Origin: Bacillota bacterium
GTDB lineage: Bacteria; Bacillota; Desulfotomaculia; Desulfotomaculales; Desulfallaceae
Length of the DNA: 57,930 nt
Direction: 5' to 3'
NCBI GenBank assembly: GCA_022360435.1
Contig: JAKSCU010000104.1
Coordinates: forward strand, 1 to 57,930
A program made the position numbers and the translations under genes. Positions 1-41,468 of this stretch are shown here, in pieces. Under the pieces are notes generated by a model. That model made no database searches. It was given only the letters and a program-made list of their open reading frames with translations, and was not told the DNA's origin. The stretch's first letter is position 1. Each line of letters opens with the position of its first letter.

Positions 1-1
1 G

Positions 2-463
2 GGCACCGGCAAGGAACAGACCATCACCATCACCGGTTCCACCAGCCTGGACCAGGGAGAAATAGACCGCATGGTGGGAGAGGCCGAGGCCAATGCGGCC
101 GAGGACAAGAAGCGCCGGGAAGAGGTGGAGGTTCGCAACGGGGCTGACACTTTGGTTTACCAGGTGGACCGCCAGCTCAAAGACCTGGGCGACAAGGTGC
201 CGCAGCATGAGAAGGCGCGCGTCGAGCAGTTGCTGAACGATTTGCGGGCCGCATTGCAGGAAAACGCCCCGGTGGACAAAATACGCGGCCTGAAGAGCGA
301 CCTGGAGCAGGCGGCCCACTCTTTGTCCCAGGCGGCTTACGGCCAGGAAGCAGGCTGCTCCGGTGGCACTTGCGGCGGCGGGGCCGGTAACGCCGGCGCC
401 GGCAGTGCGGGCCGGGTCAAACCCGACGACGATGTGGTGGACGCCGAGTACGAGGAAAAGTAA
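2..463 (+). CDS. dnaK: Molecular chaperone DnaK, C-terminal fragment (5' end lies outside the window)
   Basis: Frame open from base 2. Translation [25 protein letters not shown]...[22 protein letters not shown] is the typical DnaK lid/C-terminal region, with a Gly/Ala-rich tail ending [12 protein letters not shown]. Confidence 0.9.
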
Positions 464-570
464 AAAAGCACGCTCATTCGGTTCCCTCTGCGCGTAATTT
501 TTGATACTCTTATCTTTAAATCCGGCCATTAATATGGCCGTAGTATAACTTTCCCAAGAATATAAGAGAG
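463..570 (-). repeat. Structured intergenic repeat, copy A (inverted orientation), between dnaK and grpE
   Basis: The reverse complement aligns along its whole length with the 5146-5250 archetype: outer arms, inner hairpin CGGCCATATTAATGGCCG, terminal stem ACGC/GCGT around loop GCAGAGGGAACCGAATGA, and a T-run. Confidence 0.8.
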
Positions 571-619
571 CGGCAGGGGAAGGAATTACTGATAAACCCC
601 GGAAAGGGGCGGAAGTATA

Positions 620-1090
620 ATGAAACAAGGCACACGGGCGCGCGGGACGCAGGATGACGGCAGCATCCTGCGCCGAGCGCTGGAAGAGGAAAAAAACCGG
701 CACCTGCGCACACTGGCGGATTTCGACAATTACCGCAAGCGGGTGGAACGGGAGGCGCAAAGCAACGCCGTCCAGGGCAAGAAGGAGCTGGTGGTTGAAC
801 TGTTGCCGGTGCTGGATAACCTGGAGCGGGCCGTGGGCCAGACGCCCGACGAAAAAATGAACCGGGGGCTGGACATGGTTTACCGCCAATTTATGGATGC
901 TTTGCAGAAACACGGGCTGGAGCCGGTGGAGTGCCTGGGGCTGCCTTTTAACCCCGAAGAGCACGAAGGGGTCGGCTACGTGGCCGGCACCGGGCACCCG
1001 GCGGGCCACGTGGCCCAAGAACTTTGCCGCGGGTACCGGTTCGGGCGGGAGTTGCTGCGCCCGGCGGCGGTGCGGGTAGCCGGAGGATAG
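620..1090 (+). CDS. grpE: Nucleotide exchange factor GrpE (short form, 156 aa)
   Basis: LRTLADFDNYRKRVEREA...LLPVLDNLERA...GYRFGRELLRPAAVRV are GrpE signature blocks. The gene lies between dnaK and a J-protein gene. Confidence 0.85.
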   Translation: MKQGTRARGTQDDGSILRRALEEEKNRHLRTLADFDNYRKRVEREAQSNAVQGKKELVVELLPVLDNLERAVGQTPDEKMNRGLDMVYRQFMDALQKHGLEPVECLGLPFNPEEHEGVGYVAGTGHPAGHVAQELCRGYRFGRELLRPAAVRVAGG

Positions 1091-2098
1091 GTGATTACTA
1101 TGGGAGTAACATTTCAGGACTATTACAAAACGCTGGGCGTTGAACGCAGCGCTACTGAAAAAGAAATAAAAGCCGCTTACCGCAAGTTGGCCCGCAAATG
1201 GCACCCGGACCTGCATTCCGCCAAGGATAAGCAGGAAGCCGAGGAAAAGTTCAAGCAGGTTAACGAGGCCTATGAGGTTTTAAATGACCCGGAAAAGCGG
1301 GCCAAGTACGACCGACTGGGCGCCAACTGGCGGGACGGCCAGGACTTCCAGCCGCCGCCGGATATGGGTGATGTAAGGTTTTACACCAACATGGGCGCCG
1401 GCGGCGCCGGCGGGTTCAGCGATTTCTTTGAGATGTTTTTCGGCGGCCGGGGGGCGCCGTTCGGGCGGACCGGCCGGACCACCCGCCCCGGCGGGCCGGT
1501 GCGGGGGCAAGACGTTGAGTCGGAACTGGAACTCACATTGGAGGAAGCCTATCGCGGCGGCGAAAAAACCATACAGCTTTCCAGCCGGGAAGTCTGCCCG
1601 GCCTGCGGCGGCGCCGGCATCGGGGGAGACACATTTTGCAGCCGCTGCGGCGGCACCGGAGCCAATGCCGCCGTAAAGACATTGACGGTAAAAATACCCC
1701 CCGGCGTGCGGGACGGCGGCCGCATCAGGCTGAAGGGCCAGGGAGGCGAAGGTTACGCCGGCGGCCCCGGGGGCGATTTGTACCTGAAAGTGCGCCTGCT
1801 GCCGCACCCGCAGTTCAAGGTGCAGGGCGATGACTTGGAAACCGAAGTGGTTTTGCGGCCCGAACAGGCGGTGCTTGGTGACCGGGTGTCGGTACCCACC
1901 CTGGACGGCACGGTAAAAATGAAGGTGCCGGCAGGCATTCGGACCGGCAAGCGCCTGCGCTTGCGGGGTAAAGGGATGCCGCTTCGGGACGGTCGTGGCG
2001 ACGAGTATGTGCGCGTGGCCATCGATATCCCCGAGCGGCTGAGCCCGGAAGAAGAAGACTTGTATCGCCAACTGGCTGCGCTGAGGAAAGGGGTGTAA
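1091..2098 (+). CDS. J-domain co-chaperone, DnaJ/CbpA-like, with only two CxxCxG zinc-finger motifs
   Basis: J domain with HPD (YRKLARKWHPDLH), G/F-rich linker, CPACGGAG...CSRCGGTG, and DnaJ C-terminal beta domains. GTG at 1091 or ATG at 1100 are possible starts. Confidence 0.85.
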   Translation: MITMGVTFQDYYKTLGVERSATEKEIKAAYRKLARKWHPDLHSAKDKQEAEEKFKQVNEAYEVLNDPEKRAKYDRLGANWRDGQDFQPPPDMGDVRFYTNMGAGGAGGFSDFFEMFFGGRGAPFGRTGRTTRPGGPVRGQDVESELELTLEEAYRGGEKTIQLSSREVCPACGGAGIGGDTFCSRCGGTGANAAVKTLTVKIPPGVRDGGRIRLKGQGGEGYAGGPGGDLYLKVRLLPHPQFKVQGDDLETEVVLRPEQAVLGDRVSVPTLDGTVKMKVPAGIRTGKRLRLRGKGMPLRDGRGDEYVRVAIDIPERLSPEEEDLYRQLAALRKGV

Positions 2099-2102
2099 GC
2101 AT

Positions 2103-2393
2103 ATGGCCAAGTTTTACCTGCAACTGTACTGCCATACCCCGTCCGCGGATGAGGACGCCTGGGTGGATGTCAACGCCCTGGGCATACACCCCGATCTGGC
2201 CCGGCGGCTGGCCGAATTGGGCGTTGTTGATTACAGGCGGGGCTTTATACCTGTGCGCCAGGCGGCGCGTCTGCGCCGGGTGATGCGCCTGCGTCAAAGC
2301 CTGGGGGTCAATCTGCCGGGGGCGGCTATCATAGTGGACCTGCTGGAGCGGGTGGAAGAATTGCAGGATGAATTGGAACGGCTAAAAGGATAG
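2103..2393 (+). CDS. CbpM/HspR-like MerR-type chaperone modulator (96 aa)
   Basis: The C-terminal block RLRRVMRLRQSLGVNLPGAAIIVDLLERVEELQDEL resembles CbpM / HspR (MerR_2) proteins. It sits immediately downstream of the J-protein gene. Confidence 0.6.
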   Translation: MAKFYLQLYCHTPSADEDAWVDVNALGIHPDLARRLAELGVVDYRRGFIPVRQAARLRRVMRLRQSLGVNLPGAAIIVDLLERVEELQDELERLKG

Positions 2394-2483
2394 GGGACGC
2401 TCCCTCTGCTTGAGGGTAAGGCTTTGGGTTGAGGAATGCCCCCGACTTAGGAGGTGAACACCCGGGCAGGCCCGGGTTTGACT

Positions 2484-5093
2484 ATGGATATGAACCGTTA
2501 CACACAAAAATCGAGGGAAGCTCTTTCCACTGCCCAACAGCTGGCGGCCCAGAGGCGCCACCAGGAAGTGACGGGCAAGCACCTGCTGGCGGCGCTTTTG
2601 GCCCAGGAGGGTGGCATGGCCCCCCGTATTCTGGAGCACGCCGGGGTCAACCCCGTCCAGCTGACCGCGGCGGTGGAGGAACTGCTGCAAAAGATACCGG
2701 CGGTCACCGGATACGAAGGTTCCCTGCGCCTGGGCGCCGGGCTGGCCCGGGTGCTGGGCCGCGCCGAAAAAGAAGCCAAGGGGATGAAGGACGATTACGT
2801 CAGCGTGGAACACCTGCTGCTGGCCCTGCTGGAAGACGGCGAGCCCGAGGCGGTGACGGCGCTGCGGCGCTCGGGCTTGTCCCGGGACGCCCTGCTGAAT
2901 TCGTTGCGGGCGGTGCGGGGCAACCAGCGGGTCACCGGTGAGAATCCCGAGGATACCTACGAGGCGTTGGAGCGCTACGGTCGCGACCTGACCAAACAGG
3001 CGACCGAGGGCAAGCTGGACCCGGTCATCGGCCGGGACAACGAAATCCGCCGGGTGATGGAAATACTGTCCCGGCGCACCAAAAACAACCCGGTGCTCAT
3101 AGGCGAGCCCGGCGTGGGCAAGACCGCCATCGTGGAGGGCCTGGCCCGGCGCATTGTGGCCGGTGATGTCCCCGAAGGCCTGAAAGACAAGCGCCTGATG
3201 GAGCTGGATATGGGAGCCCTGGTGGCCGGGGCCAAGTACCGGGGCGAGTTTGAAGAACGGCTGAAAGCCGTGCTGAAAGAAGTGCAGCAATCCGACGGCA
3301 AAATTATCATGTTCATCGATGAGCTGCACACTGTGGTGGGCGCCGGGGCGGCCGAGGGCGCCGTGGACGCCGGCAACCTGTTAAAGCCCATGCTGGCCCG
3401 GGGCGAATTGCGCACCATAGGCGCCACCACTTTGGACGAATACCGCAAGCACGTGGAAAAGGACGCCGCGTTGGAGCGGCGCTTCCAGCCCGTGCTGATT
3501 AGCCAGCCAGCGGTGGAAGACACCATCTCTATCCTCAGGGGTTTGAAAGAGCGCTACGAGGTGCACCACGGGGTGCGCATCCAGGACAGCGCCCTGGTGG
3601 CGGCGGCCATGCTTTCCGATCGTTATATTTCCGATCGGTTTCTGCCCGACAAGGCCATCGACCTAATGGACGAATCGGCGGCCCGCCTGCGTACCGAAAT
3701 CGACAGCATGCCGGCGGAGCTGGACGAAATTACCCGCAAGATTATGCAGCTGGAGATCGAGGAAGCAGCCCTGGGCAAGGAGAAAGACCAGGCTTCCCGG
3801 GACCGGCTGGAAAAAATCAAGCAACAACTGGCCGAGTTGCGCGGCGACTCAGACGCCATGAAAACCCAGTGGCAGGTTGAGAAGCAGGCCATATCCCGGG
3901 TACGCCAGTTGAAGAAGGAAATTGAGGAGACCCGCCAGGAAATAGAGAAAGCCGAGCGGGACTACAACCTGGACCGCCTGGCCGAGCTGAAGTACGGCAA
4001 GCTGAACGAACTGGAACGCCGCCTCAAGGCCGAGGAGGAAACTCTGGCGGGCAAACAACAGCACGGTATGCTGCTGAAAGAGGAAGTGGACGAGGAAGAT
4101 ATCGCTCGGGTGGTCAGCCGCTGGACCGGCATCCCGGTTAGCAAGCTGATGGAAGGCGAAAAGGAAAAGCTGATCCGCATGGATGAGGAACTGCACAAAC
4201 GGGTGGTAGGCCAGGATGAGGCGGTACGGGCGGTGGCCGACGCCGTGCTGCGCGCCCGGGCCGGGATTAAGGATCCCAACCGGCCCATCGGCAGTTTCAT
4301 CTTCCTGGGTCCCACTGGCGTGGGTAAAACCGAGCTGGCCCGGGCTCTGGCCCAGGCGTTGTTTGACGACGAGCGCAACATGACCCGGCTGGATATGTCC
4401 GAGTACATGGAAAAACACGCCGTCTCCCGGTTGGTGGGCGCACCTCCGGGTTATGTGGGATACGACGAGGGCGGCCAGTTGACCGAGGCGGTGCGGCGCA
4501 AACCTTACTCGGTAATCCTGTTGGATGAAATTGAAAAAGCCCACCCCGACGTGTTTAACATACTGCTGCAGCTGTTGGACGACGGGCGGCTTACCGACGG
4601 GCAAGGCCGCACCGTGAACTTCCGGAACACCGTGGTGATTATGACTTCCAACTTGGGCAGCCACGAAATCCTGGCCCGGCAGGAGCAAGGAGACAGCTTC
4701 GAGCAAATCAAATCCGGCGTGCTGGGCATCCTGCGCCAGCATTTCCGGCCCGAGTTTCTGAACCGGGTGGATGAAATAGTGGTGTTCCACGCGCTAAGCA
4801 AGGCCCAGGTGCGGGAAATTGCCGGCCTGCTGTTGGAGCGGCTGGACCGGCGGGTGGAAGCCGGCACCGGCATCAAGTTGGCATGGGACGATGCCGCTCT
4901 TAATTACCTGGCCAACCGGGGCTATGAGCCGTCCTACGGCGCGCGACCGCTGAAGCGTCTGATCCAGCAGGAGGCGGAAACCGCCATCAGCCGGATGATT
5001 GTCAGGGGCGATGTGCGGTCAGGAGAAGTCCTTGTTTTACGGGGTGTCGACGGCGCTCTGCTGATTGAAAAAAATAAACGCGGGGACGATTAA
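2484..5093 (+). CDS. clpB: ATP-dependent disaggregase ClpB
   Basis: Two AAA+ modules (GEPGVGKT and GPTGVGKT Walker A), a coiled-coil middle domain, and N-terminus [14 protein letters not shown]. The ORF is open back to GTG 2454, but that codon abuts the SD AGGAGG (2448-2453), so ATG 2484 is preferred. Confidence 0.93.
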
Positions 5094-5120
5094 AGCTATT
5101 ACACACAAAAAACACTTGGA

Positions 5121-5151
5121 GAACAGGTGCTCGTCGGCCCTGTTCTTTTTT
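5121..5151 (+). terminator. Rho-independent terminator of clpB
   Basis: GAACAGG (5121-5127) / CCTGTTC (5139-5145) stem followed by TTTTTT. Confidence 0.7.
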
Positions 5152-5250
5152 ATACTCTTAGGTAATTATACCCGGCCATATTAATGGCCGGATTCAAGGA
5201 TAAGAGTATTAAAAGCGCACGCAGAGGGAACTGAATGAGTGCGCTTTTTT
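5146..5250 (+). repeat. Structured intergenic repeat, copy B (archetype)
   Basis: T-run, ATACTCTTA, inner hairpin CCGGCCAT-ATTA-ATGGCCGG, TAAGAGTAT (complement of the first arm), AAAA, stem GCGCAC/GTGCGC around loop GCAGAGGGAACTGAATGA, T7. Confidence 0.85.
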
Positions 5251-5348
5251 TATACTCTTAGGTAATTATACCCGGCCATATTAATGGCTGGATTCAAGGA
5301 TAAGAGTATTAAAAAGCGCACGCAAAAGGAACTGAATGAGTGCGCTTT
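5245..5348 (+). repeat. Structured intergenic repeat, copy C (head-to-tail with copy B)
   Basis: Near-identical to copy B. The inner hairpin has one change (ATGGCTGG) and the loop is GCAAAAGGAACTGAATGA. It shares the T-run with the end of copy B. Confidence 0.85.
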
Positions 5349-5486
5349 AATTAAAAGTAATCGGTAAACCTGATAAATAAATATTGTTTTGCACAATGTT
5401 TCGACAATATTCCTGAAGGGAACCGTTCCGGGGTTGTCGAAAGTAACCACGCTTACATTGCATTTATCGCCCGCGGAGGTGAAATT

Positions 5487-7358
5487 ATGCGTAGCGCCGG
5501 GCAAAAACAGGAACGGCTGCTGGAAGAGTTGGAACGGCTGCTGGAAGAATTGGAACGGCTGCGCCGGCAAAACGCTGAATTAATGCTGTACAAACATGCC
5601 TTGGACCAGCTTCCCGTGTGCACCACCCTTTACGATCATACCGGCAAAGTAAAGTATAGAAACCGGGCCGCCAAGGATGTCGACGGCTATGACAACTGGG
5701 AGTTGGTGGGGCTTACCAGGGAAGAGTACCTGCGGCGGCTTATAGCGACCAACCGTGGCCGGTCAAAGGTCATGATTTCACCACCGGCGGCCGATAGTTT
5801 ATACAACGGAATATACGAACTGGATGAAGCCACCCTGATTGCCAGGGGCGGCGTTAACAAACAGGTGCTGCTGGCGGGCAGCTTTGTTTATAATAATGAA
5901 GACTACCTTCTGGGTACCTGCGACTGTACATTTGATGTTTCGCCTTACGCCCGGCAAAACAGCGCCCATGTTTTGCAGCGCCTGATGGATATAATTTTCA
6001 TTCCAGTGTTTCACAAGGATGCTCGGGGATTCTACAAAAGCTGCAACGCGGCTTTCGAGAAACTAACCGGCTTGTCCAGATCCAAAATCATAGGTAAATC
6101 TGTATTTGATCTTTATCCCCGGGATTTGGCCGAAAAATATCATGAAATGGACACCAAGCTTTTTAAAAATCCGGGCATACAAGTTTATGAAACCAATGTT
6201 CCCAGCGCCAACGGAACTAGACATGACGCTATCCTGACCAAATCCACATACCTGAACGCCGAGGGTGAGGTAGCCGGCCTGGTGGGGGTGATAACCGACA
6301 GATCCGAACATAAACGTGTGGAAAAAGAACTGAGTTTTTCCAAGGAAAAATTTATGAAAATATTTGACGCCAGCCCCGGCTCCATGGCGATAATGACCAG
6401 GGACGGCAGAATTACTGAAGCCAACAGGAGCTTTATAATTTCTTCTTGTTACAGCACGGACGAAGTGATTGGTAAAAACGTCAAGGAACTCAATGTGTTT
6501 GCAAACCCCGAAGAACACTATGCAATTATAAGCATCTTAAATAGTGACGGCATTGTAACAAATCGTGAAGTTGGTTTTCGCAACAAGTTTGGAGAACCCG
6601 GAGTGGGGTTGCTATCCGCTGAAATGATTGAGCTGGACGGGGAAGAGTGTATACTGGCGGTGGTAATCGATATAACAGAGCGCAAACGTTTAGAACGGGA
6701 AATGGCCCGTCTGGACCGGATGAACCTGGTGGGACAGATGGCTGCCGGCATCGGCCACGAGATCAGAAATCCTTTAACAGCTGTGCGGGGATTTTTGCAG
6801 CTTCTGACAGGTAAAGAGGAGTGCAGTCTTTACGAGGAATACCTTAACATAGCCATCAGCGAACTGGACCGGGCCAATGCCATTATAACCGAATTCTTGT
6901 CTCTGGCCAGGGACAGGCCGTTGCACTTGCAAAAAAGGAACATAAACGATATTATTAAGGTTCTTTTTCCGCTGATGCACGCCGACGCCACCATTTCCGG
7001 CAAACATATTGAAATGTTGCTGGGGGAGATACCCAAAATGCCCATTGACGAAAAGGAGATTCGCCAGTTGATTCTCAACCTGGTGCGCAACGGTATGGAA
7101 GCGATGCCGAAAGGCGGCCGTATGCAGGTAAAGACGTACCAAGACGGCAATGCGGTAGTTCTCGCGGTGAAGGACGAGGGCTTCGGCATTAAATCGGCCA
7201 TACTGGAAAGGCTGGGCACCCCGTTTTTAACCACCAAGGATGAAGGCACAGGTTTGGGTTTGGCGGTATGTTACAGTATTGCCGGCAGACACAATGCCAC
7301 CATTGATATAAAAACATCCCCCTCGGGAACCACCTTTTATGTTCGGTTTGGCAAGTAA
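5487..7358 (+). CDS. Cytoplasmic PAS-domain sensor histidine kinase (sporulation-kinase-like)
   Basis: SD GGAGGTG lies 5 nt upstream. Features: N-terminal coiled coil, PAS repeats, H-box HEIRNPLTAVRGFLQLL, N box LVRNGMEAM, G boxes DEGFGI / GTGLGLAV. No TM segments. Confidence 0.9.
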   Translation: MRSAGQKQERLLEELERLLEELERLRRQNAELMLYKHALDQLPVCTTLYDHTGKVKYRNRAAKDVDGYDNWELVGLTREEYLRRLIATNRGRSKVMISPPAADSLYNGIYELDEATLIARGGVNKQVLLAGSFVYNNEDYLLGTCDCTFDVSPYARQNSAHVLQRLMDIIFIPVFHKDARGFYKSCNAAFEKLTGLSRSKIIGKSVFDLYPRDLAEKYHEMDTKLFKNPGIQVYETNVPSANGTRHDAILTKSTYLNAEGEVAGLVGVITDRSEHKRVEKELSFSKEKFMKIFDASPGSMAIMTRDGRITEANRSFIISSCYSTDEVIGKNVKELNVFANPEEHYAIISILNSDGIVTNREVGFRNKFGEPGVGLLSAEMIELDGEECILAVVIDITERKRLEREMARLDRMNLVGQMAAGIGHEIRNPLTAVRGFLQLLTGKEECSLYEEYLNIAISELDRANAIITEFLSLARDRPLHLQKRNINDIIKVLFPLMHADATISGKHIEMLLGEIPKMPIDEKEIRQLILNLVRNGMEAMPKGGRMQVKTYQDGNAVVLAVKDEGFGIKSAILERLGTPFLTTKDEGTGLGLAVCYSIAGRHNATIDIKTSPSGTTFYVRFGK

Positions 7359-7456
7359 ACCAGCCACTTTGTTGGAAAGGGATTATGTTATCTTGGTGTG
7401 GAAAAAATTTGATCGGTTCGCTTGGCGACTACAAGTCGTTTTTGCATGTAAAATAA

Positions 7457-7481
7457 AATCCCCGGCTTATTTCCGGGGATT
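7457..7481 (-). terminator. Hairpin terminator downstream of the small Cys-rich ORF (minus strand)
   Basis: 9-bp stem AATCCCCGG/CCGGGGATT with a 7-nt loop. On the minus strand it is followed by TTATTTTA. Confidence 0.5.
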
Positions 7482-7521
7482 AGATATTCAACCTCGTTAT
7501 GTTTGCAACCTTGCACAAACC

Positions 7522-7695
7522 CTATTCGCAGCAACTGCCGTTGGTGGTTTTGCCCCACTCGTCGGTCATTTGCTTTTTGCTGACGAACTCGTCGCAGGGG
7601 CGGCTTTTTGTTTCCACGGGCTTGTTAGTTTTTTCACACACCGCGGCCTCAATTGACTTCCACTGTTTGAAGTGTAGACAATCCTTACAAAGCAA
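7522..7695 (-). CDS. Unannotated small Cys-rich protein (57 aa; TTG start)
   Basis: Hand translation: (M)LCKDCLHFKQWKSIEAAVCEKTNKPVETKSRPCDEFVSKKQMTDEWGKTTNGSCCE. SD-like GGAGTAGGTG lies 7 nt upstream of the TTG, and the hairpin at 7457-7481 follows. It is below the 60-aa cut-off of the ORF track. Confidence 0.4.
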   Translation of the reverse strand: MLCKDCLHFKQWKSIEAAVCEKTNKPVETKSRPCDEFVSKKQMTDEWGKTTNGSCCE

Positions 7696-7869
7696 TGTTC
7701 AACACCTACTCCCGTTTAAAGTGTGTGCGCTTTGGTTATTTAATCCTTATTTATTATAAACAATAACCGCCAGTGATGCCAGTAAAAGTTTTGTATGCGC
7801 GGTAAGGTGGGTTTAATGCAACACTTGCGGTTCCGAACAAGTCAATATTATATTGTCACCGGGCTGTTG

Positions 7870-8775
7870 TTACGTCCAAAAGCTGTGAAAAAAAGACAAG
7901 TAGAACAGGGAATCGTCTCCTGTATAGGCAAAAGGCTTGTTGTATTCAATTTTCTTTACTTCGAACTTATACCAGTTGAAATCGCCGGTTTTTAATTTCC
8001 ATATCACGTCTCCCCGGGTGGGAACCCTTATTCCGTCAAATTCCCCGTATTCCTTCACCGGGATCGACCATGTTTCCAATGCGAACTTTCCATCGAATTC
8101 CCCATATCTTGGGGCAATAAAATTAATCACCTGGCCTTTTTCGTTAAAATGAAATACTCCTGACGCGGTGATCCCTGCATAGCTCATGGTCGCCCTGGCC
8201 GAGCGGCCGTCTATTTCTTCCCATGTAATGTGGTTGCTTAATGCCGCAGTAGGAATCCACATGGTCTCGGCAAGGTATCGTACCAAAGAGCCCTGGTCTG
8301 TCTCTTCTCCCTTGGAGTTTGCAACCGTTGCCAATGAAAGAAATTTGATCAGCACGTTTCCTTTGCCCGCATGATATTTGTCCCTGGCTCCAATATGCAT
8401 TAGCGGGGCGGCTTTAACCTTTGCTATCCAAATATATCCCGGCTTGTCCACAGTAAAATACTGCTCGGCTTCAAGGGGCATCCACCGGCCTTCTTTTTTC
8501 AGCCTCATTACCGCAGTTTGTTTTAAACGAGCGGTGGTAATTCTTTCTTTTCCGATCACCTGGGAGTAGACAAGCCATTTTTGAACGCTGGGCGGCAGCT
8601 CGGCCAAGTCGGATTCTTGTATAATTTCACCTTTATCTTCGATACCTGTAAAAAAATCACCGACTTCTTTTTTGGCCTTTTGGTTAAACGTAATATTTGC
8701 TATGTGCGATATTGTTAAAAATGCCGCAATAATGGCTGCCAGAACACCAATAACCATAAGTGGAATTTTGGGCAT
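7870..8775 (-). CDS. Membrane-anchored protein of unknown function (301 aa)
   Basis: SD AAAGGAG upstream of the ATG. N-terminal TM helix (IPLMVIGVLAAIIAAFLTI) followed by a soluble beta-rich domain. Codon usage is coherent although the region is AT-rich. Confidence 0.6.
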   Translation of the reverse strand: MPKIPLMVIGVLAAIIAAFLTISHIANITFNQKAKKEVGDFFTGIEDKGEIIQESDLAELPPSVQKWLVYSQVIGKERITTARLKQTAVMRLKKEGRWMPLEAEQYFTVDKPGYIWIAKVKAAPLMHIGARDKYHAGKGNVLIKFLSLATVANSKGEETDQGSLVRYLAETMWIPTAALSNHITWEEIDGRSARATMSYAGITASGVFHFNEKGQVINFIAPRYGEFDGKFALETWSIPVKEYGEFDGIRVPTRGDVIWKLKTGDFNWYKFEVKKIEYNKPFAYTGDDSLFYLSFFHSFWT

Positions 8776-8870
8776 AATTCCGGTCTCCTTTTATATGAGC
8801 TTTACAGTTATTGTTCCTTTTAAATCTAAAAAAATAGGACAAGGAATCGTCCCTTGTCATAACTAGGTAG

Positions 8871-9155
8871 TTATTGTTTTTCCCTTATCTTAAATTCCAA
8901 ACCGCCGGTAAAACGTGAAAGTAGGTTATATAATATTGAAAAAAATATTAACACTACAGAAGCTGATAATCCATAAGCACCCATGAAAAGTGTTGTAGAA
9001 ATTAAGCCTTTTAAAAGTGTTGTTAATCCCATATTTGCTGGCGTAAGAAGAAAACCCATTATGAAACCAATCACCAGGCCTGTAATTACAAAAAGAACAA
9101 CAGTGTTCTTGATTACGGAAATCACATTTATCTGGTGAACAATAATTGTTTTCAA
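8871..9155 (-). CDS. Small integral membrane protein (94 aa, about 3 TM)
   Basis: SD GGAAGGAGG lies 10 nt upstream of a TTG start. Three hydrophobic helices. Confidence 0.5.
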   Translation of the reverse strand: MKTIIVHQINVISVIKNTVVLFVITGLVIGFIMGFLLTPANMGLTTLLKGLISTTLFMGAYGLSASVVLIFFSILYNLLSRFTGGLEFKIREKQ

Positions 9156-9217
9156 TCTAGTCTTACCTCCTTCCTAATATTAACATACTATTATTCTGCA
9201 CCTATTTCAATCAATAT

Positions 9218-9270
9218 AAAAAAAGTATCCGGCCATATTTTGACCGGAATCAAGGGAATAAGTATAGAAA
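9218..9270 (+). repeat. Degenerate partial copy (I) of the structured repeat
   Basis: AAAAAGTAT-CCGGCCATATTTTGACCGG-AATCAAGGGAATAAGTATA matches the inner hairpin plus ATTCAAGGATAAGAGTAT segment of the archetype. The terminal hairpin is missing. Confidence 0.45.
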
Positions 9271-9291
9271 TGCATGTATTGAAGGAACTAA

Positions 9292-10635
9292 CTAAAGCGC
9301 GCATTTTTTGTTGGTTCTGGTCCAAATGTTCATCTTGGCGGCTTCGGCCACCAACTCGTCGTGGAAATCGGGGTGGGCCAATTGGATGAGCGATTCGGCC
9401 CGTTCCCAGGTGGATTTGCATTTCAAGTTGGTGATGCCGTATTCCGTGGCCAGGTACATTACCGTGGAGCGGGTGGTGGTGACGATGGTGCCCGGGTCCA
9501 GGGTGGGCCTGATACGGGAGTGCAATTGCCCGTTTTTATCCTGATAGGTGGAGGGCAGGCAGATAAAAGCCTTGCCTCCCTTGGAAAGATAAGCGCCTTC
9601 CACGAAGTCCACCTGCCCACCGGTGCCGCTGATCTGGCGGCAGCCGAAAGACTCCGCCGCCACCTGGCCGTATAGATCCACCTCCAGGGCGCCGTTAATG
9701 GATATAACTTTGTCGTTTTGGGCTATGATGTGCGGGTAGTTGGTGTAGTCCACCGGATAGGAAGCCGCCGCCGGGTTGTTGTCCAGGAAATCGTACAGCC
9801 GCCGGCTGCCCAGGGCAAAGGTGAACACCATTTTACCCCGGTCGATTGTTTTGCGTTGGCCGGTGATTTTACCGGCTTCCCACATGTCCAGGTAGGCATC
9901 GCAAAGCATTTCGGTATGGGCGCCCAGGTCTTTCAGGTCCGATTGGGCAATGAGCTTGCCCAAAGCGTTGGGCATACCGCCTATGCCCAGTTGAATACAG
10001 GCGCCGTCCTCAATTTCATTCATTATTAGCGCGGCTATTTTCCGGTCGGTTGCCGTGATGGGCATTTCCGGTATGGGAGGAACATTCCAGTCGGCTTCCA
10101 CCACCATGTCCACCTCGGAGATGTGGATGGATTCGTTGTTGCCGCCTTGTACCCGGGGCAGCTTGGGGTTGACTTCCACAATCACACGGTCCGCCATATC
10201 CAGGACGTTGCGGGTGAACGTGTTGGACAGCCCGTAGTTAAAGAAACCATGCTTGTCCATGGGCGCCACGGCTATCATGGCTGCGTTGGACCGGGTAAAT
10301 TGGGCGTAGCTGGGACACTCCCGGAACAAGATGGGTATATAACTGCAGAGTCCGTAGTCATGTATCCGCCGGTCGATAAGCGTAAAGTGACCACTGTTGA
10401 AAATAAAGCTCTCCCGCTTGGGGTCGACCAGCACAACCATTGGGGGGCCGTAAACCCTGGCCGCCGAACGGATGCTGACGTTTTCCAGTTCCCCCTTTCG
10501 GTTGGCCAGGGCTTTGTCCAGCTCAACCACCTGGTTGGCGAAGGTCCCGTAGTCCACCAAGTGGCCCGATTCTATTACTTTTACCGCCTCGCCGGCAGTC
10601 ACCAGTTTGGATTGGTAATCTGTTGCGTGTTGCAT
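9292..10635 (-). CDS. Acetyl-CoA hydrolase/transferase family protein (4-hydroxybutyrate / butyryl-CoA:acetate CoA-transferase-like)
   Basis: 447 aa, with family blocks such as GIGGMPNA and SGTGGQVDFVEGA typical of Cat2/AbfT-type CoA-transferases. Confidence 0.85.
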   Translation of the reverse strand: MQHATDYQSKLVTAGEAVKVIESGHLVDYGTFANQVVELDKALANRKGELENVSIRSAARVYGPPMVVLVDPKRESFIFNSGHFTLIDRRIHDYGLCSYIPILFRECPSYAQFTRSNAAMIAVAPMDKHGFFNYGLSNTFTRNVLDMADRVIVEVNPKLPRVQGGNNESIHISEVDMVVEADWNVPPIPEMPITATDRKIAALIMNEIEDGACIQLGIGGMPNALGKLIAQSDLKDLGAHTEMLCDAYLDMWEAGKITGQRKTIDRGKMVFTFALGSRRLYDFLDNNPAAASYPVDYTNYPHIIAQNDKVISINGALEVDLYGQVAAESFGCRQISGTGGQVDFVEGAYLSKGGKAFICLPSTYQDKNGQLHSRIRPTLDPGTIVTTTRSTVMYLATEYGITNLKCKSTWERAESLIQLAHPDFHDELVAEAAKMNIWTRTNKKCAL

Positions 10636-10717
10636 TTTTCTCCCCCCGACAAAGGTATATTTTTAGACTAATGCTTAAATTATTATTTTTTTGATTATTA
10701 ATTTAATTTAAAAAAAA

Positions 10718-10732
10718 GCAATAACTGTACCA
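10718..10732 (-). promoter_or_regulatory. Sigma54 (-24/-12) promoter candidate for the CoA-transferase gene
   Basis: The minus strand reads TGGTACAGTTATTGC, i.e. GG and GC at the spacing of the TGGCAC-N5-TTGC consensus. It lies about 80 nt upstream of the ATG at 10635, and a sigma54 activator gene lies 1.5 kb away. Confidence 0.55.
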
Positions 10733-11070
10733 GAGACTAGGAGCGGTTAAATAGCCGGTTTGACGGGTGGAGGACAGAGTGTGGGGTTTGTGACTAAGTG
10801 GCCGGTGTCCCGTCGGCGCGACACAGAAGAATGGAAGCATTGATTTTTGAAGGAGTGGCAGGTTTGTCTCGCCTGTATGCAAAAAGCGACACAAAAAGAT
10901 ATGTTTTTCAATGTTGGTCTTTACAAAAGAGGAAAATTTTTATCTTTTATAGAATGAATATTATATGTGCTAAAAAATTTCCCATGACTCCGTTATCTTC
11001 AGATTACGCTCGGTGCGGGAGAGTACCACCGGCTGGGTATAATTTCTTGTGGACAGGCAGGTGAAAAATC

Positions 11071-12132
11071 TTGAATTTACGCTGCGAGATTGATAATTTG
11101 GAGCCGGAGATGGTTGTGAACGAAGATATATACGATGGTGACAATGTTTTAATGTTGGCCCGTGGAACAGTACTAACCAGGGAAAATATTGAGTCAATAA
11201 AAAAGCTGGGCGTGCGCGAGTTGGATATTTACCGGCGGCTGCAATTTAAACAGCCGGTGCTGGCCTACCACCTGGATCAAACCAGGGTCAGGGACTTTAA
11301 GCATCAATACGCCCGGTCGCGGAATGAGTTTAAAGGCTTAATCAAGTATATAAGTTCCGGCAACCAAGTCAATGTGGACCAGGCATACAGGATTCCCGGC
11401 GCGCTGCTGTCCAGCGTGGGTTCGACCAACAATCTTTTTGCTTATCTTAATCACGTTGACGGGCTGGATGATCATACCTTGGGACACAGCATCAATGTGG
11501 CGCTAATATGCGCCGTCATCGGCAACTGGTTCAACTTGAATAAAGATGACACCAAAAAAATCGTGGTGGCGGGTTTGTTGCACGATGTGGGCAAAAGCTT
11601 GCTTCCACCCATGCTCCTGAACAAAGCGGGTCTGTTCACACCGGAAGAGTGGGTGCAGGTAAAGAAACACCCCATTCATGGTTATCGTATTTTGCACCGG
11701 GTCCGTATACCCAAACCCATGCTGGTGGGAGCGCTCATGCATCACGAACGGGAGGACGGTAGCGGATACCCTTTCGGTGTCAGTCAGGGCAAGATACCCA
11801 TGTCCGCCCGGTTTGTGGCTTTGGCCGACATTTACGATGCCATGACCTCCAACCGGTGTTACCGGAACAGTATGAGCCCCTTCAAGGTTATCAGACTGCT
11901 GTTGAACAATTATTATGGAGTGCTGCACACCGGTATCCTAATGACTTTCCTGAGCCGCATCGCCGAGTGTTATGTCGGCGAAATGGTGCGCCTCACCGAC
12001 GGCAGAGTGGGTAAGGTGGTATTTATCAACTCAGGTAATCCGGCCCGGCCTGTGGTACAGTTGACCGACGGTTTCATCAACTTGGAGGAAACCACAAGCC
12101 TGGACATTGACAGCTTGCTGACAGTGGGATAA
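11071..12132 (+). CDS. HD-GYP domain protein (putative c-di-GMP phosphodiesterase)
   Basis: HDVGK ... HHEREDGSGYPFG motifs. TTG start with AGGTGA 6 nt upstream. Confidence 0.85.
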   Translation: MNLRCEIDNLEPEMVVNEDIYDGDNVLMLARGTVLTRENIESIKKLGVRELDIYRRLQFKQPVLAYHLDQTRVRDFKHQYARSRNEFKGLIKYISSGNQVNVDQAYRIPGALLSSVGSTNNLFAYLNHVDGLDDHTLGHSINVALICAVIGNWFNLNKDDTKKIVVAGLLHDVGKSLLPPMLLNKAGLFTPEEWVQVKKHPIHGYRILHRVRIPKPMLVGALMHHEREDGSGYPFGVSQGKIPMSARFVALADIYDAMTSNRCYRNSMSPFKVIRLLLNNYYGVLHTGILMTFLSRIAECYVGEMVRLTDGRVGKVVFINSGNPARPVVQLTDGFINLEETTSLDIDSLLTVG

Positions 12133-12148
12133 CATTCCCTCCGGGATG

Positions 12149-13555
12149 CTACCGCATCCTGTCCAGTTTCCTGTACAGCACCGAACGGTGGATACCCAAT
12201 AACCGGGCGGTCTCTTTTTTATTGTGGCCCGTGGCGGCCAGCGCGTGCAATATGGCTCCTTTTTCCGCCTCTTCAATCACTTCCTGCAGCGACCGGATGG
12301 AATAACGGTCCGGTGGCAGGCATTTAAGTTGCCTTTGCAGCCGCTTTTTCAGCACCGGAAAATCGTGCTGGCGCAGTGTTTCTCCTTCGCCCAGGTTTGC
12401 TGCCTGCTCAAGGAAGTTTTCCAGCTCACGCACATTGCCGGGCCAGTCGTACTGTAAGAATAATTGCATAACTTCGCCGGAAACACCCGTGACTGCAGCC
12501 CCCAGGCGGCGGTTAAGCTTGTTGAGCAAATGCCTGGTCAGGTCCGGGATGTCTTCCTTGCGTTCCCGCAGTGGCGGCACTTGCAGCAATACCACGTTAA
12601 GCCGGTAATAAAGGTCGTCCCGAAACTGCCTGGCCAGGATCATCTCCTCCAGGTTTCGATTGGTGGCGGCGATTACACGCACGTCCACCGATACCGGCGG
12701 TCCGGTGCCGCCCACCCGCTCAATCTCCTTCTCCTGCAGAACCCGCAGTAGTTTGGCCTGCATGGGTCCGTTCATGTCCCCGATTTCATCCAGGAAGATG
12801 GTGCCCCCCTGGGCAATTTCGAACTTGCCCACCTTGCCGCCCCGTTTGGCGCCGGTAAAAGCTCCTTCCTCGTAGCCAAATAGTTCCGATTCCAATAGAT
12901 CCGTGGGAATGGAGGTGCAATTCACCCGCACGAAGGCGCGTTCCCGCCGCGGGCTGGCGTTATGAATGGCGTGGGCGAAAAGCTCCTTGCCCGTGCCGCT
13001 TTCGCCGGTAATCAGTACGGTTGACGAAGTCCGGGCCACTTTGCCGACTTTTTGCTTTAGCCTGATTATTTGCCCGCTTTGACCGGTGATGTTGGTGGCG
13101 TTGTACTTGGCCCTTCGCTCCTGGTCCAGCTCGGCCCGGTAACCGGCCAGTTTGCTTTCCAGTTGTTTAATCTTCCGGGCGAAATCCCGGGCCATGGTCA
13201 TCTCGTCTCTGAACATACTCCTTCCCAGCACCCCGATAATCTTACCGTCTTTTTCGATGGGCAGCCTGGTTACCGCCACCTGGCGACCATTGATGTTCCA
13301 AATGTCACCGTATTGCGGCCGGCCGCTTTCCAGCACCTCGGGCAGTCGCGTCTGGGGTACGGCTTCCCTGACGGGGCGGCTGAGGAACTCTTCGGGGCTA
13401 CCTCCCAGGAACTCGGCGTAACCACGGCTGATGAAGCGGATAATGCCGCCGGCGTCCACAATGATAACCCCTTCATAAGGGTTGTCCAGGACAGCCGCCA
13501 GGAATTCGTTACTGATTAAAGGATTGGTGGTTTTCCCGTTATTCATATCACTCAC
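12149..13555 (-). CDS. Sigma54-dependent transcriptional activator with N-terminal PAS domain
   Basis: PAS domain, AAA+ module with GESGTGKE Walker A and the GAFTGA loop, and a C-terminal Fis-type HTH (TARLLGIHRSVLYRKL). Confidence 0.9.
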   Translation of the reverse strand: MSDMNNGKTTNPLISNEFLAAVLDNPYEGVIIVDAGGIIRFISRGYAEFLGGSPEEFLSRPVREAVPQTRLPEVLESGRPQYGDIWNINGRQVAVTRLPIEKDGKIIGVLGRSMFRDEMTMARDFARKIKQLESKLAGYRAELDQERRAKYNATNITGQSGQIIRLKQKVGKVARTSSTVLITGESGTGKELFAHAIHNASPRRERAFVRVNCTSIPTDLLESELFGYEEGAFTGAKRGGKVGKFEIAQGGTIFLDEIGDMNGPMQAKLLRVLQEKEIERVGGTGPPVSVDVRVIAATNRNLEEMILARQFRDDLYYRLNVVLLQVPPLRERKEDIPDLTRHLLNKLNRRLGAAVTGVSGEVMQLFLQYDWPGNVRELENFLEQAANLGEGETLRQHDFPVLKKRLQRQLKCLPPDRYSIRSLQEVIEEAEKGAILHALAATGHNKKETARLLGIHRSVLYRKLDRMR

Positions 13556-13602
13556 CTGCTATACATAGAGTTGATTAAATCCGATAAACCGGCACCGCGA
13601 CT

Positions 13603-14520
13603 TTACCCGCGCTTTTGCAGCATAACGCCGGCGATGATCAACACACCACCCAGCAATTGGCGTCCGCTGAGAGTTTCCTGCAGCAGCCACATGCCTAGCA
13701 GCGCGGTGGAGACCGGTTCAAAGGTGCTGATGATGGCGGCCCGGGAGGCGCCGATTCGCTTGACGCCCTGGAACAGGGTTATGACTGAAAGCACGGTGCA
13801 TACCAGCGCCAGAAAAATAATGGCTTGCCAAGCACCGGCGCTGAGAGCCAGGTCGATTTTATCCCCGCCCAGGCCTAAAAGCAGGAAAAATACCGCCGTT
13901 AACCCGGTAATGTAAGCTGAAAACACCACCACGGGGATGTCTGAGATTAAGCGCGTACAACACACCAGGTACACGGCGTTAATCACGGCGGCTGCAAGGG
14001 CGAAAAATACACCCCGCATGTCCAGTCCCGCCACCGGCTGGCTGAGAATAATAACGCAACCGGCCATGGTACAGAGCAGGGCCAGCAGCTTGCGCCAGGT
14101 TACCGGTTCCTTTAAGTAAAAGTACGCCAGTATAGTCACCACCGAGGGATAAACATACAGCAGCAGGATAGCCATGGCGGCCGGGATGAAATGGAACGCG
14201 TAAAAAAGAAATAGTACCGTCAGGGAGTGCCCGCCCAACGAAAGCGCGGTTACCGGGGCCCATTGTCGCCGGTCCAATCTCCAGGGATATCGGCAAAGGA
14301 TTGTCACGGCCCAAATGACCACTGCCGCGATGAGATAGCGCATCGAGAGGGTGGTGATAACGTTGGCCCCTTCCCGGTAGGCGATTTTAGCCGCGATGGC
14401 TTCGGTGCTAAGGCTGATGGTGGCCACCAGAATCAGCAGTATGCCCGTGGTATCCGGGCTAATGCTTGGTAATGGACGTTTGTTTTCTTTTGCCTGCCGC
14501 ATGACATCACCGACATTCAT
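13603..14520 (-). CDS. DMT-superfamily (EamA) transporter
   Basis: 305 aa, about 10 TM helices, two EamA-like halves. Confidence 0.8.
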   Translation of the reverse strand: MNVGDVMRQAKENKRPLPSISPDTTGILLILVATISLSTEAIAAKIAYREGANVITTLSMRYLIAAVVIWAVTILCRYPWRLDRRQWAPVTALSLGGHSLTVLFLFYAFHFIPAAMAILLLYVYPSVVTILAYFYLKEPVTWRKLLALLCTMAGCVIILSQPVAGLDMRGVFFALAAAVINAVYLVCCTRLISDIPVVVFSAYITGLTAVFFLLLGLGGDKIDLALSAGAWQAIIFLALVCTVLSVITLFQGVKRIGASRAAIISTFEPVSTALLGMWLLQETLSGRQLLGGVLIIAGVMLQKRG

Positions 14521-15027: not shown

Positions 15028-15029
15028 GA

Positions 15030-16464: not shown

Positions 16465-16519
16465 TTTGTCACCCCGTTGTTGTTTTCAATACAATCGGAC
16501 AGTTTTTGGTTTTTAATTT

Positions 16520-16612
16520 GAAAAGTATTACCAGGCCATGTTTATGGTACGGAATCAATTAAAAAAGTATTAAAAAAACGCGCGGAGGGAACCAAATGAG
16601 CGCGTTTTTTTT
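16520..16612 (+). repeat. Structured intergenic repeat, copy D (degenerate 5' half)
   Basis: CCAGGCCATGTTTATGGTACGG hairpin, AAAAGTATTAAAAAAA, stem CGCGC/GCGCG around loop GGAGGGAACCAAATGA, T8. Confidence 0.7.
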
Positions 16613-16699
16613 GTCGTTCCTGTAAATTATTTCACCATAAATAAGAGCATGTCCTGCCAATACTTGAAAAAATTATGCGCTTACTGTTAATAAGCGTAA

Positions 16700-16804
16700 T
16701 TTTTTTATACTTTAGAAAAGTATATCTTGCCATATATATCAAGGGCATAAAGGAAAAAAGTATTAAAAAGCGCACGCAGCGGGAACCGATGAGTTGCTTT
16801 TTTC
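16700..16804 (+). repeat. Structured intergenic repeat, copy E (subfamily 2)
   Basis: TTTTTTTATACTTT...CTTGCCATATATATCAAGGG...AAAAGTATTAAAAAGCGCAC-GCAGCGGGAACCGATGA-GTTGC-TTTTTT. Confidence 0.8.
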
Positions 16805-16812
16805 ATTATCCC

Positions 16813-25914: not shown

Positions 25915-26002
25915 TATTAGTACCTCCACTAATCAAATTATTACTATAATCTCTCTAAAGTATTTAAGAAATTAGACGTATTTTTGCATAAAAAAGTTTC
26001 AT

Positions 26003-26105
26003 TTTTTATACTCTAGAAAATTATACCATGTAATATATATGGCAAGGACAAAGGAAAAAAGTATTAAAAAGCGCGCTTAGAGGGAGCCGAATGAGTGCGC
26101 TTTTT
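26003..26105 (+). repeat. Structured intergenic repeat, copy F (subfamily 2)
   Basis: TTTTTTATACTCT...CCATGTAATATATATGGCAAGG...AAAAGTATTAAAAAGCGCGC-TTAGAGGGAGCCGAATGA-GTGCGC-TTTTT. Confidence 0.8.
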
Positions 26106-26262
26106 AATTAAAAATTAGTTAATATTTCTAATATTACATCTAACCTCCAGAGTCAAACTTACAATATGGTGCTTGCATGTTTTTAAAAAATATGTTACAA
26201 GAAAATTGTCAGAATAGAGTATCTAAAATACCAGTTGTGGATATTAATGGGAGATATAAAAA

Positions 26263-36072: not shown

Positions 36073-36165
36073 GGTACGCCCCCAGCATGGGCGTCGTTTC
36101 TTCGCTTGCGCATGTGCCGGTGGGAGCAATGGAAGCGTGTTCGAATGCTTTGGGAAAGCGTCGCT

Positions 36166-36247
36166 TCCGGCCATATTAACGGCCGGATTCAAGTGTAAAA
36201 GTATTTAAAAGCACGAGCAGAGGCAACGAATGAATGCGCTTTTTTTA
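36166..36247 (+). repeat. Structured intergenic repeat, copy G (5'-truncated)
   Basis: CCGGCCATATTAACGGCCGG-ATTCAAGTGTAAAAGTATTTAAAAGCAC-GAGCAGAGGCAACGAATGA-ATGCGC-TTTTTTT. Confidence 0.7.
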
Positions 36248-36272
36248 GAACAAGCACGGGAGGAATGGACAA

Positions 36273-41191: not shown

Positions 41192-41313
41192 CACCGGCCA
41201 CACCGGCAATACAGGCATCCTTTTATGATATAAAAAAGGTGCCTGTATTTTTGTTTGATGGGAAAATAGCATGCAAGGACTATTATCATTTATAATTGTG
41301 CCTGTCATAATCG

Positions 41314-41455
41314 AAAAGCGTGCACAGAATGGAAACAAATGAGTACGCTTTTTTTATACTTTTAGGAAATTATACCTTGCCATATATATGGCAAGGGCAG
41401 AGGAGAAAAGTATTAAAAAGCGCACGCAAAGGGAACCAAATGAGTGCGCTTTTTA
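41314..41455 (+). repeat. Structured intergenic repeat: orphan terminal-hairpin module (H0) followed by full copy H (subfamily 2)
   Basis: H0: AGCGTGC-ACAGAATGGAAACAAATGA-GTACGCT-T7. H: ATACTTTT...CCTTGCCATATATATGGCAAGG...AAAAGTATTAAAAAGCGCAC-GCAAAGGGAACCAAATGA-GTGCGC-TTTTT. Confidence 0.8.
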
Positions 41456-41468
41456 ATAGGTGGGGAAT

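Follow-up and report, generated by a model that had tools for sequence, protein, structure and literature searches.

The 57,930-nt stretch analysed here (contig JAKSCU010000104.1 of the Bacillota bacterium assembly GCA_022360435.1; hereafter the window) contains a structured intergenic repeat of about 100 nt, made of two hairpin modules, whose archetype is a head-to-tail pair behind the clpB gene. The copies of this element are homologous and dispersed, and comparison with related organisms showed them to be inserted relative to orthologous sites. With moderate confidence, we interpret the element as a lineage-restricted, non-autonomous mobile repeat that lands in the T-tracts of transcription terminators and adds a terminator-like hairpin suited to both directions. 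It is a real and previously undescribed family; it is not a new class of RNA.

Two covariance models were used to define the copies: R1, which runs from the linker through hairpin 2 to the T-run (63 positions, 10 pairs), and R2, which comprises the 5' module, or module 1 (67 positions, 16 pairs). With filters off and at E<1e-4, R1 gave exactly 10 matches in the 58-kb window and nothing else: 459-521 on the minus strand and, on the plus strand, the matches at 5192, 5292, 9248 (weak, 41 bits), 16553, 16746, 26047, 36187, 41294 and 41396. R2 gave nine matches in the window, each directly upstream of an R1 match. The original prediction, made from the sequence alone, had listed the copies and proposed such a covariance-model scan; as the window copies were recovered by both models (10 by R1, 9 by R2) at the listed places and nowhere else in the window, the list is complete and correctly placed. 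A repeat finder likewise grouped the archetype at 5146-5348 with the copies at 16.5, 16.7, 26.0, 36.2 and 41.3 kb, and the degenerate linker-loop pattern AGTATN{12,20}RGGGAACYRAATGAGYGYG (39-40 nt) matched four times in the window, against 0.00 matches expected from 100 dinucleotide-preserving shuffles. Pairwise identity between the window copies is 62-85%, and 96% within the tandem pair; the copies form subfamilies by the sequence of the inner hairpin. The copies and the two terminator hairpins that adjoin them are as follows.

459..572, minus strand: full copy, inverted (R1 74.7 bits at 459-521(-); R2 69.2 bits at 500-567(-)), between dnaK and grpE; the hairpin-2 module begins 1 nt past the dnaK stop codon, and the copy is identical in a second assembly (L008).
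5118..5151, plus strand: native intrinsic terminator of clpB, AGAACAGG..CCTGTTCT followed by T6 (the upstream 48 nt fold at -16.4 kcal/mol), adjoined by the first copy of the pair.
5146..5250, plus strand: archetype full copy 1 (R2 88.1 bits, R1 83.7 bits; minimum free energy -38.8 kcal/mol, z = -6.4), laid out as T-run, arms ATACTCTTA/TAAGAGTAT, inner hairpin CCGGCCAT-ATTA-ATGGCCGG, linker, hairpin 2 and T7.
5245..5348, plus strand: full copy 2 (R2 85.3 bits, R1 78.8 bits), 96% identical to copy 1, head-to-tail with it and with the T7 run in common.
9204..9311, plus strand: decayed copy (R2 52.8 bits, R1 41.3 bits), inner hairpin intact, hairpin 2 with three transitions in its 5' stem; 3' stem and T-run reach into the last codons of the gene at 9292-10635(-).
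16507..16614, plus strand: full but diverged copy (R2 57.7 bits, R1 69.2 bits), within the divergent intergenic region 16465-16853.
16676..16706, plus strand: unrelated hairpin followed by T7, TGCGCTTA..TAAGCGTA (terminator scan; fold -10.5 kcal/mol), directly preceding the next copy.
16700..16808, plus strand: full copy of the subfamily with inner hairpin CTTGCCATATATAT.. (R2 70.6 bits, R1 62.7 bits), hairpin 2 partly decayed.
26002..26109, plus strand: full copy (R2 72.7 bits, R1 76.4 bits), in a divergent intergenic region (genes 23959-25929 on the minus and 26263-27003 on the plus strand).
36139..36248, plus strand: full-length copy, 5' part diverged and hairpin 2 weakened (R2 46.7 bits, R1 67.9 bits; hairpin core just -2 kcal/mol), stopping 26 nt ahead of the start of an amino-acid kinase gene.
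41294..41357, plus strand: orphan hairpin-2 module, only the 3' end kept (R1 52 bits; no R2 match), its T7 run leading directly into the next copy.
41350..41458, plus strand: full copy (R2 79.7 bits, R1 77.7 bits), stopping 5 nt ahead of the open reading frame (ORF) called at 41460, an EamA transporter gene whose likely ribosome-binding site and ATG lie within ∼20 nt of the T-run of the copy.

Two details of the earlier description have to be revised. The copy at 36166 had been called 5'-truncated, but its diverged 5' part is there, as R2 scores 46.7 bits over the full model. The statement that every copy is intergenic holds except for the copy at 9218: its decayed 3' stem and its T-run extend over the stop codon and the final four codons of an acetyl-CoA hydrolase/transferase gene on the opposite strand; the C-terminus of this protein reads ..KKCAL* in the window and ..KRCQV* in the L095 orthologue. 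At the level of modules only two copies are partial (41294 and the metagenome copy L001); both retain the 3' module, and module 1 was never found alone.

Read 5' to 3', the unit consists of a T-tract, the long hairpin of module 1, the linker AAGTATTRAAAA, hairpin 2 and a T-tract. The long hairpin has 9-bp arms (ATACTYTTA/TAARAGTAT), an internal loop and an inner GC hairpin, GCCATATWWATGGC. Its tip tolerates insertions, as indicated by a 46-nt hairpin (CAGYGGTCAGGGGACA..TGTCCCCAACTT, with an inner CCTC/GAGG stem) that is nested in it at L002:3300-3346 and L003:8351-8397 and marks a subfamily of a second carrier organism, described below. The linker is near-invariant (A-AGTAT-AAAA) and at least as conserved as the loop of hairpin 2, and the AGTAT motif stands ahead of both hairpins. 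Hairpin 2 has a 6-7-bp GC stem, extended by pairing of an A-run with a T-run, and a conserved loop of 16-18 nt (NNN-GAGGGAACYRAAUGA), in which GGAAC and AATGA show 90% conservation or more among 14 copies taken from several organisms. The stem of hairpin 2 is paired in 94% of cells and shows compensatory changes in 5 of 10 pairs, the variants including GCGCAC/GTGCGC, GCGCGC/GCGCGC, ACGCGC/GCGCGT and GCGTGC/GTACGC; for module 1 (outer arms and inner hairpin) the values are 85% of cells and 4 of 17 pairs. The earlier observation that the loop is better conserved than the stems was thus borne out, GGAAC...AATGA being kept at 90% or more while the stem covaries.

Whole units fold far better than shuffled sequences, and the reverse strand of 5146-5250 folds about equally well. 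In intact copies the core of hairpin 2 has a predicted energy of -9 to -14 kcal/mol, similar on the opposite strand, and 13 of the 15 copies have the order A4-7, 6-7-bp GC stem, T4-8. Judged by modelled energy and flanks, hairpin 2 thus resembles a bidirectional intrinsic terminator, its unusually large loop apart. This loop can be read as an irregular stem capped by a GGAA tetraloop, as a kink-turn (K-turn)-like motif, or as an exposed Shine-Dalgarno (SD) sequence (GAGGG) with a 6-7-nt spacer and AUG. A K-turn-like arrangement, in which a variable 3-nt bulge is followed by GA...UGA beside the stem, fits about 10 of the 15 copies, with substitutions at G1b or A2b in three of the window copies. 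Consistent with a K-turn bulge, the triplet behind the 5' stem is variable (GCA, TTA, ACA, GCG, GCT), whereas GA and UGA on its flanks are largely retained. The SD-like GAGGG, 6-7-nt spacer and ATG of the original prediction are present as described, and the frames downstream are indeed not conserved: a mini-ORF starting at the loop ATG (MSALF...) was rejected, as its length ranges from 4 to more than 13 codons and its conservation ends with the hairpin sequence. The suggestion that loop conservation reflects sequence-specific recognition is plausible; against it, the GA motif is substituted in 3 of the 10 window copies and pairs inside the loop lack covariation, pairs predicted there showing none either way among the ∼15 copies. 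Readings of the palindromes as CIRCE, HAIR, a sigma-54 promoter or a DNA uptake sequence were considered by eye against consensus sequences, and none fits.

The host of the window is placed in the Desulfotomaculia on the basis of its ClpB and GrpE proteins: ClpB is 89-91% identical to the proteins of 'Peptococcaceae bacterium BRH_c8a' and 'Desulfotomaculum sp. BICA1-6', and the best GrpE match among species representatives is that of Pelotomaculum propionicicum (62%). The host is therefore an uncultured member of this class. No Rfam 15 family matched the window at gathering thresholds, in agreement with the earlier failure to recognise a named family, and an E-value search of 5100-5400 returned nothing real; the best sub-threshold match was McaS (23.7 bits, against a gathering score of 42). 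No element was found by exact-pattern scan of one genome per species (185,579 species), by three pattern scans of IMG/VR viral contigs, or by BLAST against phage and plasmid collections, and R1 gave no match in 1.27 Mb around grpE from 80 genomes. Around clpB and mutL in nine related organisms (more than 370 kb), R1 and R2 gave a single weak match, of R1 (29.9 bits), at L095:3179-3234. This sequence is a terminator between convergent genes, in which the 3' half of hairpin 2 (AATGAGCGTGCTTTTTTAC) is identical to that of the window copy at 463 and the hairpin loop is short (CCGGTCAATGA); it could be a distant relative, a progenitor-type terminator or a chance match.

Further copies came from metagenomes of the Joint Genome Institute, in which a relaxed pattern scan gave six true loci and one chance coding match (L004). 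The true loci derive from three datasets, Ga0209164, Ga0068714 and Ga0048257. Because their MutL proteins are identical, Ga0209164 and Ga0068714 represent one organism; the MutL of this second carrier is 74% identical to that of BICA1-6, which places the carrier in one clade with the window organism. The element is dense in the window organism, with one copy per 5.8 kb of window, and less frequent in the second carrier; the distribution of the family is thus patchy and confined to a lineage. In Ga0048257 the element lies within a longer repeat of at least 349 nt (L005:1232-1580 = L007:1-349) with different neighbours (a BFN nuclease gene in one case, def-fmt in the other), and a GC-rich 73-nt segment 3' of the element recurs at the end of L005 (L005:2317-2389 = L007:217-289); this long repeat looks like a second repeat family or a composite.

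Evidence for insertion came from the mutL-miaA-hfq region, which is syntenic in the loci L099, L100, L101 and L102 and in which filled and empty hfq sites were compared by affine-gap alignment. In L099, the element stands between the hfq terminator (AAAGCCGAG..CTCGGC-T8) and the sequence TTTCATAACG..CAGGCAGTTTGTG. In L100, whose MutL is 86% identical, the homologous terminator (AAAGCCGGG..CCCGGC-T5) continues straight into GTCATGCAACG..CAGGCAGTTTGTG without the element, and the hfq sites of L101 and L102 are empty as well. The spacer between clpB and the kinase gene behind it contains two copies in the window and none in L093. Presence and absence at orthologous sites were thus shown at two places, the hfq terminator and the clpB-kinase spacer. 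In addition, L090 and L093 share with the window a conserved block (16625-16672), which has element copies on both sides in the window alone. Among the options raised by the original prediction, a mobile repeat therefore fits best, considering the presence or absence at orthologous sites, the lack of the element in the closest relatives and the existence of subfamilies at 62-85% identity.

A T-tract precedes 9 of the 12 full copies. Seven of the 12 lie directly 3' of a hairpin with a T-run (-9 to -17 kcal/mol), in the same orientation. The upstream hairpins of five of these are unrelated canonical terminators (that of clpB, the hairpin at 16676-16698 and those before the L002, L003 and L006/hfq copies); the other two are hairpin 2 of the element itself, in head-to-tail pairs. 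Two further full copies follow a T-run without a clear hairpin. At the 9218 copy a pre-existing T-run, belonging to the end of the opposite-strand gene, lies on the 3' side of the element, from which the target appears to be the T-tract as such. With respect to genes, 7 of 12 loci (a small sample) are downstream of a co-oriented gene or terminator, three are in divergent regions and two are anti-oriented. Nine of the 10 window copies are on the plus strand, the G-rich strand along the entire window (positive GC skew everywhere), a bias that is confounded with gene orientation. Orientation relative to replication was also considered and dropped, the short metagenome loci being confounded by gene orientation.

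On this basis, the copies would have spread by integration directed at terminator T-tracts. Each copy would rebuild a hairpin and a T-tract at its own 3' end and so offer a new target, which would explain the head-to-tail pairs. The linker and the loop may be the determinants by which a trans-acting enzyme recognises folded single-stranded nucleic acid. Once resident, a copy would add an intrinsic-terminator-like hairpin, with a core of about -9 to -14 kcal/mol on both strands and a T4-8 tail, that may stack on the terminator of the gene or attenuate transcription between co-directional genes (dnaK-grpE, M48 peptidase-EamA). Such insertions would be tolerated because they lie downstream of transcription units. 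Between element and co-directional gene there is no room for a new promoter (36248 to 36273, 41458 to 41460); at the dnaK-grpE, amino-acid kinase and EamA sites read-through must therefore occur, so that the elements there would be attenuators and not full stops.

A number of observations weigh against this interpretation. The element has no terminal inverted repeats (TIRs): its 5' end (T-run and ATACTC) is not an inverted copy of its 3' end (GTGCGC and T-run), and the inverted arms of 9 bp lie inside module 1. Neither the window nor the surroundings of the metagenome copies yielded a transposase, a reverse transcriptase or a longer autonomous element sharing its ends, and Y1_Tnp had no match among the window ORFs scanned. 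Since the flanks are T-runs, no target-site duplication (TSD) can be defined: the Ts that flank the copies may be a split or duplicated target or be borne by the element, and at the filled and empty hfq sites (flanks T8...T4 against T5) a duplicated T-tract is indistinguishable from element-borne Ts. Three of the 12 full copies (463rc, 36166 and L005) have no preceding T-run, and three loci are in divergent promoter regions, in which there is no evident need for a terminator. A loop of 16-18 nt is atypical for efficient intrinsic terminators, which bears on the predicted terminator. In addition, the copies are old (15-38% diverged), yet their hairpins are kept by compensatory changes and the loop is conserved between organisms; this persistence of hairpin and loop could reflect selection for an RNA function of each copy rather than constraint on a master copy. 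Finally, only ∼15 distinct copies are available in all.

The conservation of hairpins and loop would also fit a cis-acting functional RNA module, which we regard as possible, if unlikely. Hairpin 2 would then be a specialised terminator or attenuator whose loop is bound by a protein or the 30S subunit, and the host would have spread or kept the module as a tuner of termination or 3'-end stability; candidates for the loop are a K-turn or K-loop (C-stem GCGCAC/GUGCGC, variable 3-nt bulge, GA...UGA), the GGAA tetraloop on an irregular stem, CsrA-type GGA motifs and the SD sequence with AUG. The loop that stays at least 90% conserved between organisms while its stem covaries, the K-turn-like variation of the post-stem triplet beside mostly kept GA and UGA, and the maintenance of hairpins between copies at 62-85% identity all argue for such a role. 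So do the elements between co-directional genes that leave no promoter room and require read-through, and the L001 copy, in which hairpin 2 alone is the sole terminator candidate after a sigma-54 activator gene. However, the element is missing at the same loci in relatives with ∼90% ClpB identity and thus does not belong to the conserved regulation of these genes, and the flanking genes have no functional theme in common. Moreover, predicted pairs inside the loop do not covary, the putative K-turn is substituted at G1b or A2b in 3 of the 10 window copies (5245, 16700, 41351), several copies are decayed and no Rfam family matches. That the copies are ordinary intrinsic terminators, evolved independently and alike by chance or convergence, has next to no probability. 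Hairpin 2 does look like a bidirectional terminator in its A-run, GC stem and T-run, and its energies are terminator-typical; but ∼100 nt can be aligned, including unpaired positions of linker and loop and a second hairpin module, shuffled sequences gave 0 matches, and three loci lie in divergent promoter regions. The alignments effectively refute this explanation.

The elements could also be genes for trans-acting small RNAs (sRNAs) of ∼100 nt, in which an A-rich linker joins a 5' hairpin to a terminator with U-tail, and which would act through their GGA or SD-like motifs. On the plus strand, such an sRNA would be made from its own promoter or by read-through of the upstream terminator; the CU-rich, anti-SD-like motifs of the minus strand are possible too. 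This architecture is like that of Hfq- or CsrA-type sRNAs, and the best sub-threshold Rfam match, McaS, binds CsrA, although its score is far below the gathering score of 42. Lying between two terminators, the elements recall in their position the E. coli sRNAs made by rrn read-through (PMC8144298), and most copies have TATAAT, TATACT or TATATT on the minus strand. These -10-like boxes have no -35 at 16-18 nt (the nearest -35-like hexamer is at 14 or 21 nt), and a transcript of the minus strand would have no terminator at its 3' end. On neither strand was a sigma-70-type promoter found in the five copies within 1-20000, the part of the window scanned; the sRNA option of the original prediction was not supported. 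The count of G-U against A-C mismatches in hairpin 2 (6 against 3) is not significant and does not identify the transcribed strand, and the decay of several copies speaks against sRNA genes as well. We therefore consider them improbable. Similarly improbable is a retroposon-like 'bacterial SINE' homing to terminators, in which the RNA would have its 3' end set by its own intrinsic terminator and its U-tail would anneal to the A-tract opposite the target T-run and prime reverse transcription by a host- or intron-encoded enzyme, for which the conserved linker and loop would be the handle. This would account for the T-run of a terminator at the 3' end of the element, for T-tract insertions in fixed orientation, for tandem arrays and for the absence of TIRs. 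It would also fit the 9218 copy, which adjoins a pre-existing T-run at a gene end by its 3' and not its 5' end, and the fact that the only partial copies (41294, L001) are 5'-truncated; group IIC intron retroelements insert after terminators too (PMC4424553). On the other hand, no reverse transcriptase was seen at any locus, and the truncation bias is not statistically significant because there are just two module-level partial copies. DNA transposition into T-tracts accounts for the same facts, and to our knowledge no such retroposon mechanism exists in bacteria. The mobile repeat directed at terminator T-tracts thus remains our preferred reading of the element.

If the density of the window held genome-wide, the host would contain several hundred copies, comparable to REP in E. 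coli. Such density would help to explain assembly breaks at these loci; contig L009 begins inside the tandem pair. For a selfish element, homing to terminators and bringing another terminator-shaped hairpin would be a simple way to be harmless. Such a repeat would also change 3' ends, operon read-through and the insulation between genes, and in the window the element sits inside the dnaK-grpE-dnaJ-hspR-clpB heat-shock cluster. Given a complete genome, the mobilising enzyme could be sought precisely by way of the conserved linker and loop, and the R1 and R2 models can be used to mask or annotate the family in metagenome-assembled genomes of subsurface Desulfotomaculia.

Several other features of the window were recorded. 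The window, an entire metagenomic contig, begins at the 3' end of dnaK, followed by grpE, dnaJ (CbpA-like), hspR (MerR_2) and clpB (1-5093; also in L008); in some close relatives (L093, L095, L097) grpE is absent at this position of the heat-shock cluster. A conserved small hairpin, CCCCGGAAAGGGG, lies immediately 5' of the grpE ribosome-binding site at 596-612 (also L090:8124-8140); the BRH_c8a-like relative has this motif in the corresponding position, and a role in translation or temperature sensing within the heat-shock cluster is possible. At 5398-5446, upstream of the PAS/HisKA kinase gene that follows clpB, there is an inverted pair of Spo0A-box-like heptamers (TTCGACA ... TGTCGAA), which is kept in position and sequence at L093:10178-10226 and L090:12732-12782, the spacer around it not being alignable. 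The block at 16625-16672 mentioned above (also L090:17990-18045 and L093:15735-15785) is a conserved non-coding sequence, ..TTCACC..TCCTGCCAATAYTTGRAAAAA, upstream of a 130-aa gene on the minus strand; by eye it does not agree with the -24/-12 spacing of sigma-54. In the segment 18037-20700 (∼2.7 kb), all ORFs on the two strands are short (40-157 aa) and overlap one another, and the five that were tested had no Pfam match; the segment could be a small-gene cluster, a decayed gene or non-coding sequence.

Among described repeats, the closest analogue, to judge by its features, is pneumococcal SPRITE, a Rho-independent-terminator-like interspersed repeat of a Firmicute that is AT-rich, has AAAA/TTTT ends, lies near the 3' ends of coding sequences, is restricted to one species and its closest relatives, and has no known TSD or transposase (PMC3049150). 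Both are small (less than 200 bp), AT-rich Firmicute repeats of narrow lineage that consist of a stem, then a T-rich tract, with an AAAA/TTTT foot. The present family shares the many dispersed copies in a narrow lineage (10 in 58 kb, and absent from 185,579 representative genomes) and the GC stem and T-tract with an A-tract/T-tract foot. SPRITE is, by its description, a single 18-bp duplex with a long U-rich tract, and homology is not expected; the present element, in contrast, is built with an additional hairpin module on the 5' side, its linker is invariant, a loop of 16-18 nt is conserved, and it specifically adjoins pre-existing terminators. Like REP/BIME repeats (RAYT/TnpA-REP) and PATEs derived from IS200/IS605, the element is an extragenic, multi-module hairpin repeat without TIRs or a definable TSD and has a short conserved motif 5' of the hairpin foot (here AGTAT); an orientation bias may be a further likeness, 9 of the 10 window copies lying on the G-rich strand, a count confounded with gene orientation. 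However, REP and REPIN have the motif GTAG and form inverted doublets of 20-40-nt imperfect palindromes, whereas here AGTAT precedes two unlike hairpins in direct order; the loop, at 16-18 nt, is far larger than in REP. The end hairpins of IS200/IS605-derived PATEs resemble each other, and PATEs insert 3' of a fixed target of 4-5 nt; the two subterminal hairpins of the present element are unrelated in sequence, and no Y1 HUH transposase was seen in the sequence examined.

The link to terminators is reminiscent of group IIC introns, which insert after intrinsic terminators (Robart et al. 2007, as cited in PMC4424553): they too are inserted directly 3' of a terminator stem-loop and T-tract in fixed orientation. 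This target preference is the sole likeness; the element is only ∼100 nt long, with no ribozyme domains, no intron-encoded protein and no Rfam intron match. BOX and Correia/NEMIS-type MITEs (miniature inverted-repeat transposable elements) are likewise modular, structured intergenic repeats with subfamilies and tandem modules, which can be co-transcribed with their neighbours and alter termination or processing; they have clear TIRs and TSDs (TA for Correia) and links to known IS families, whereas the present element has no TIRs, no definable TSD and no such link. Of the features of classical MITEs, TIRs are thus missing, and presence or absence at orthologous sites is found. The element is therefore best filed as a new family of small, structured, terminator-like interspersed repeats, in which the two-module architecture is unusual and the link to pre-existing terminators is unusually explicit.

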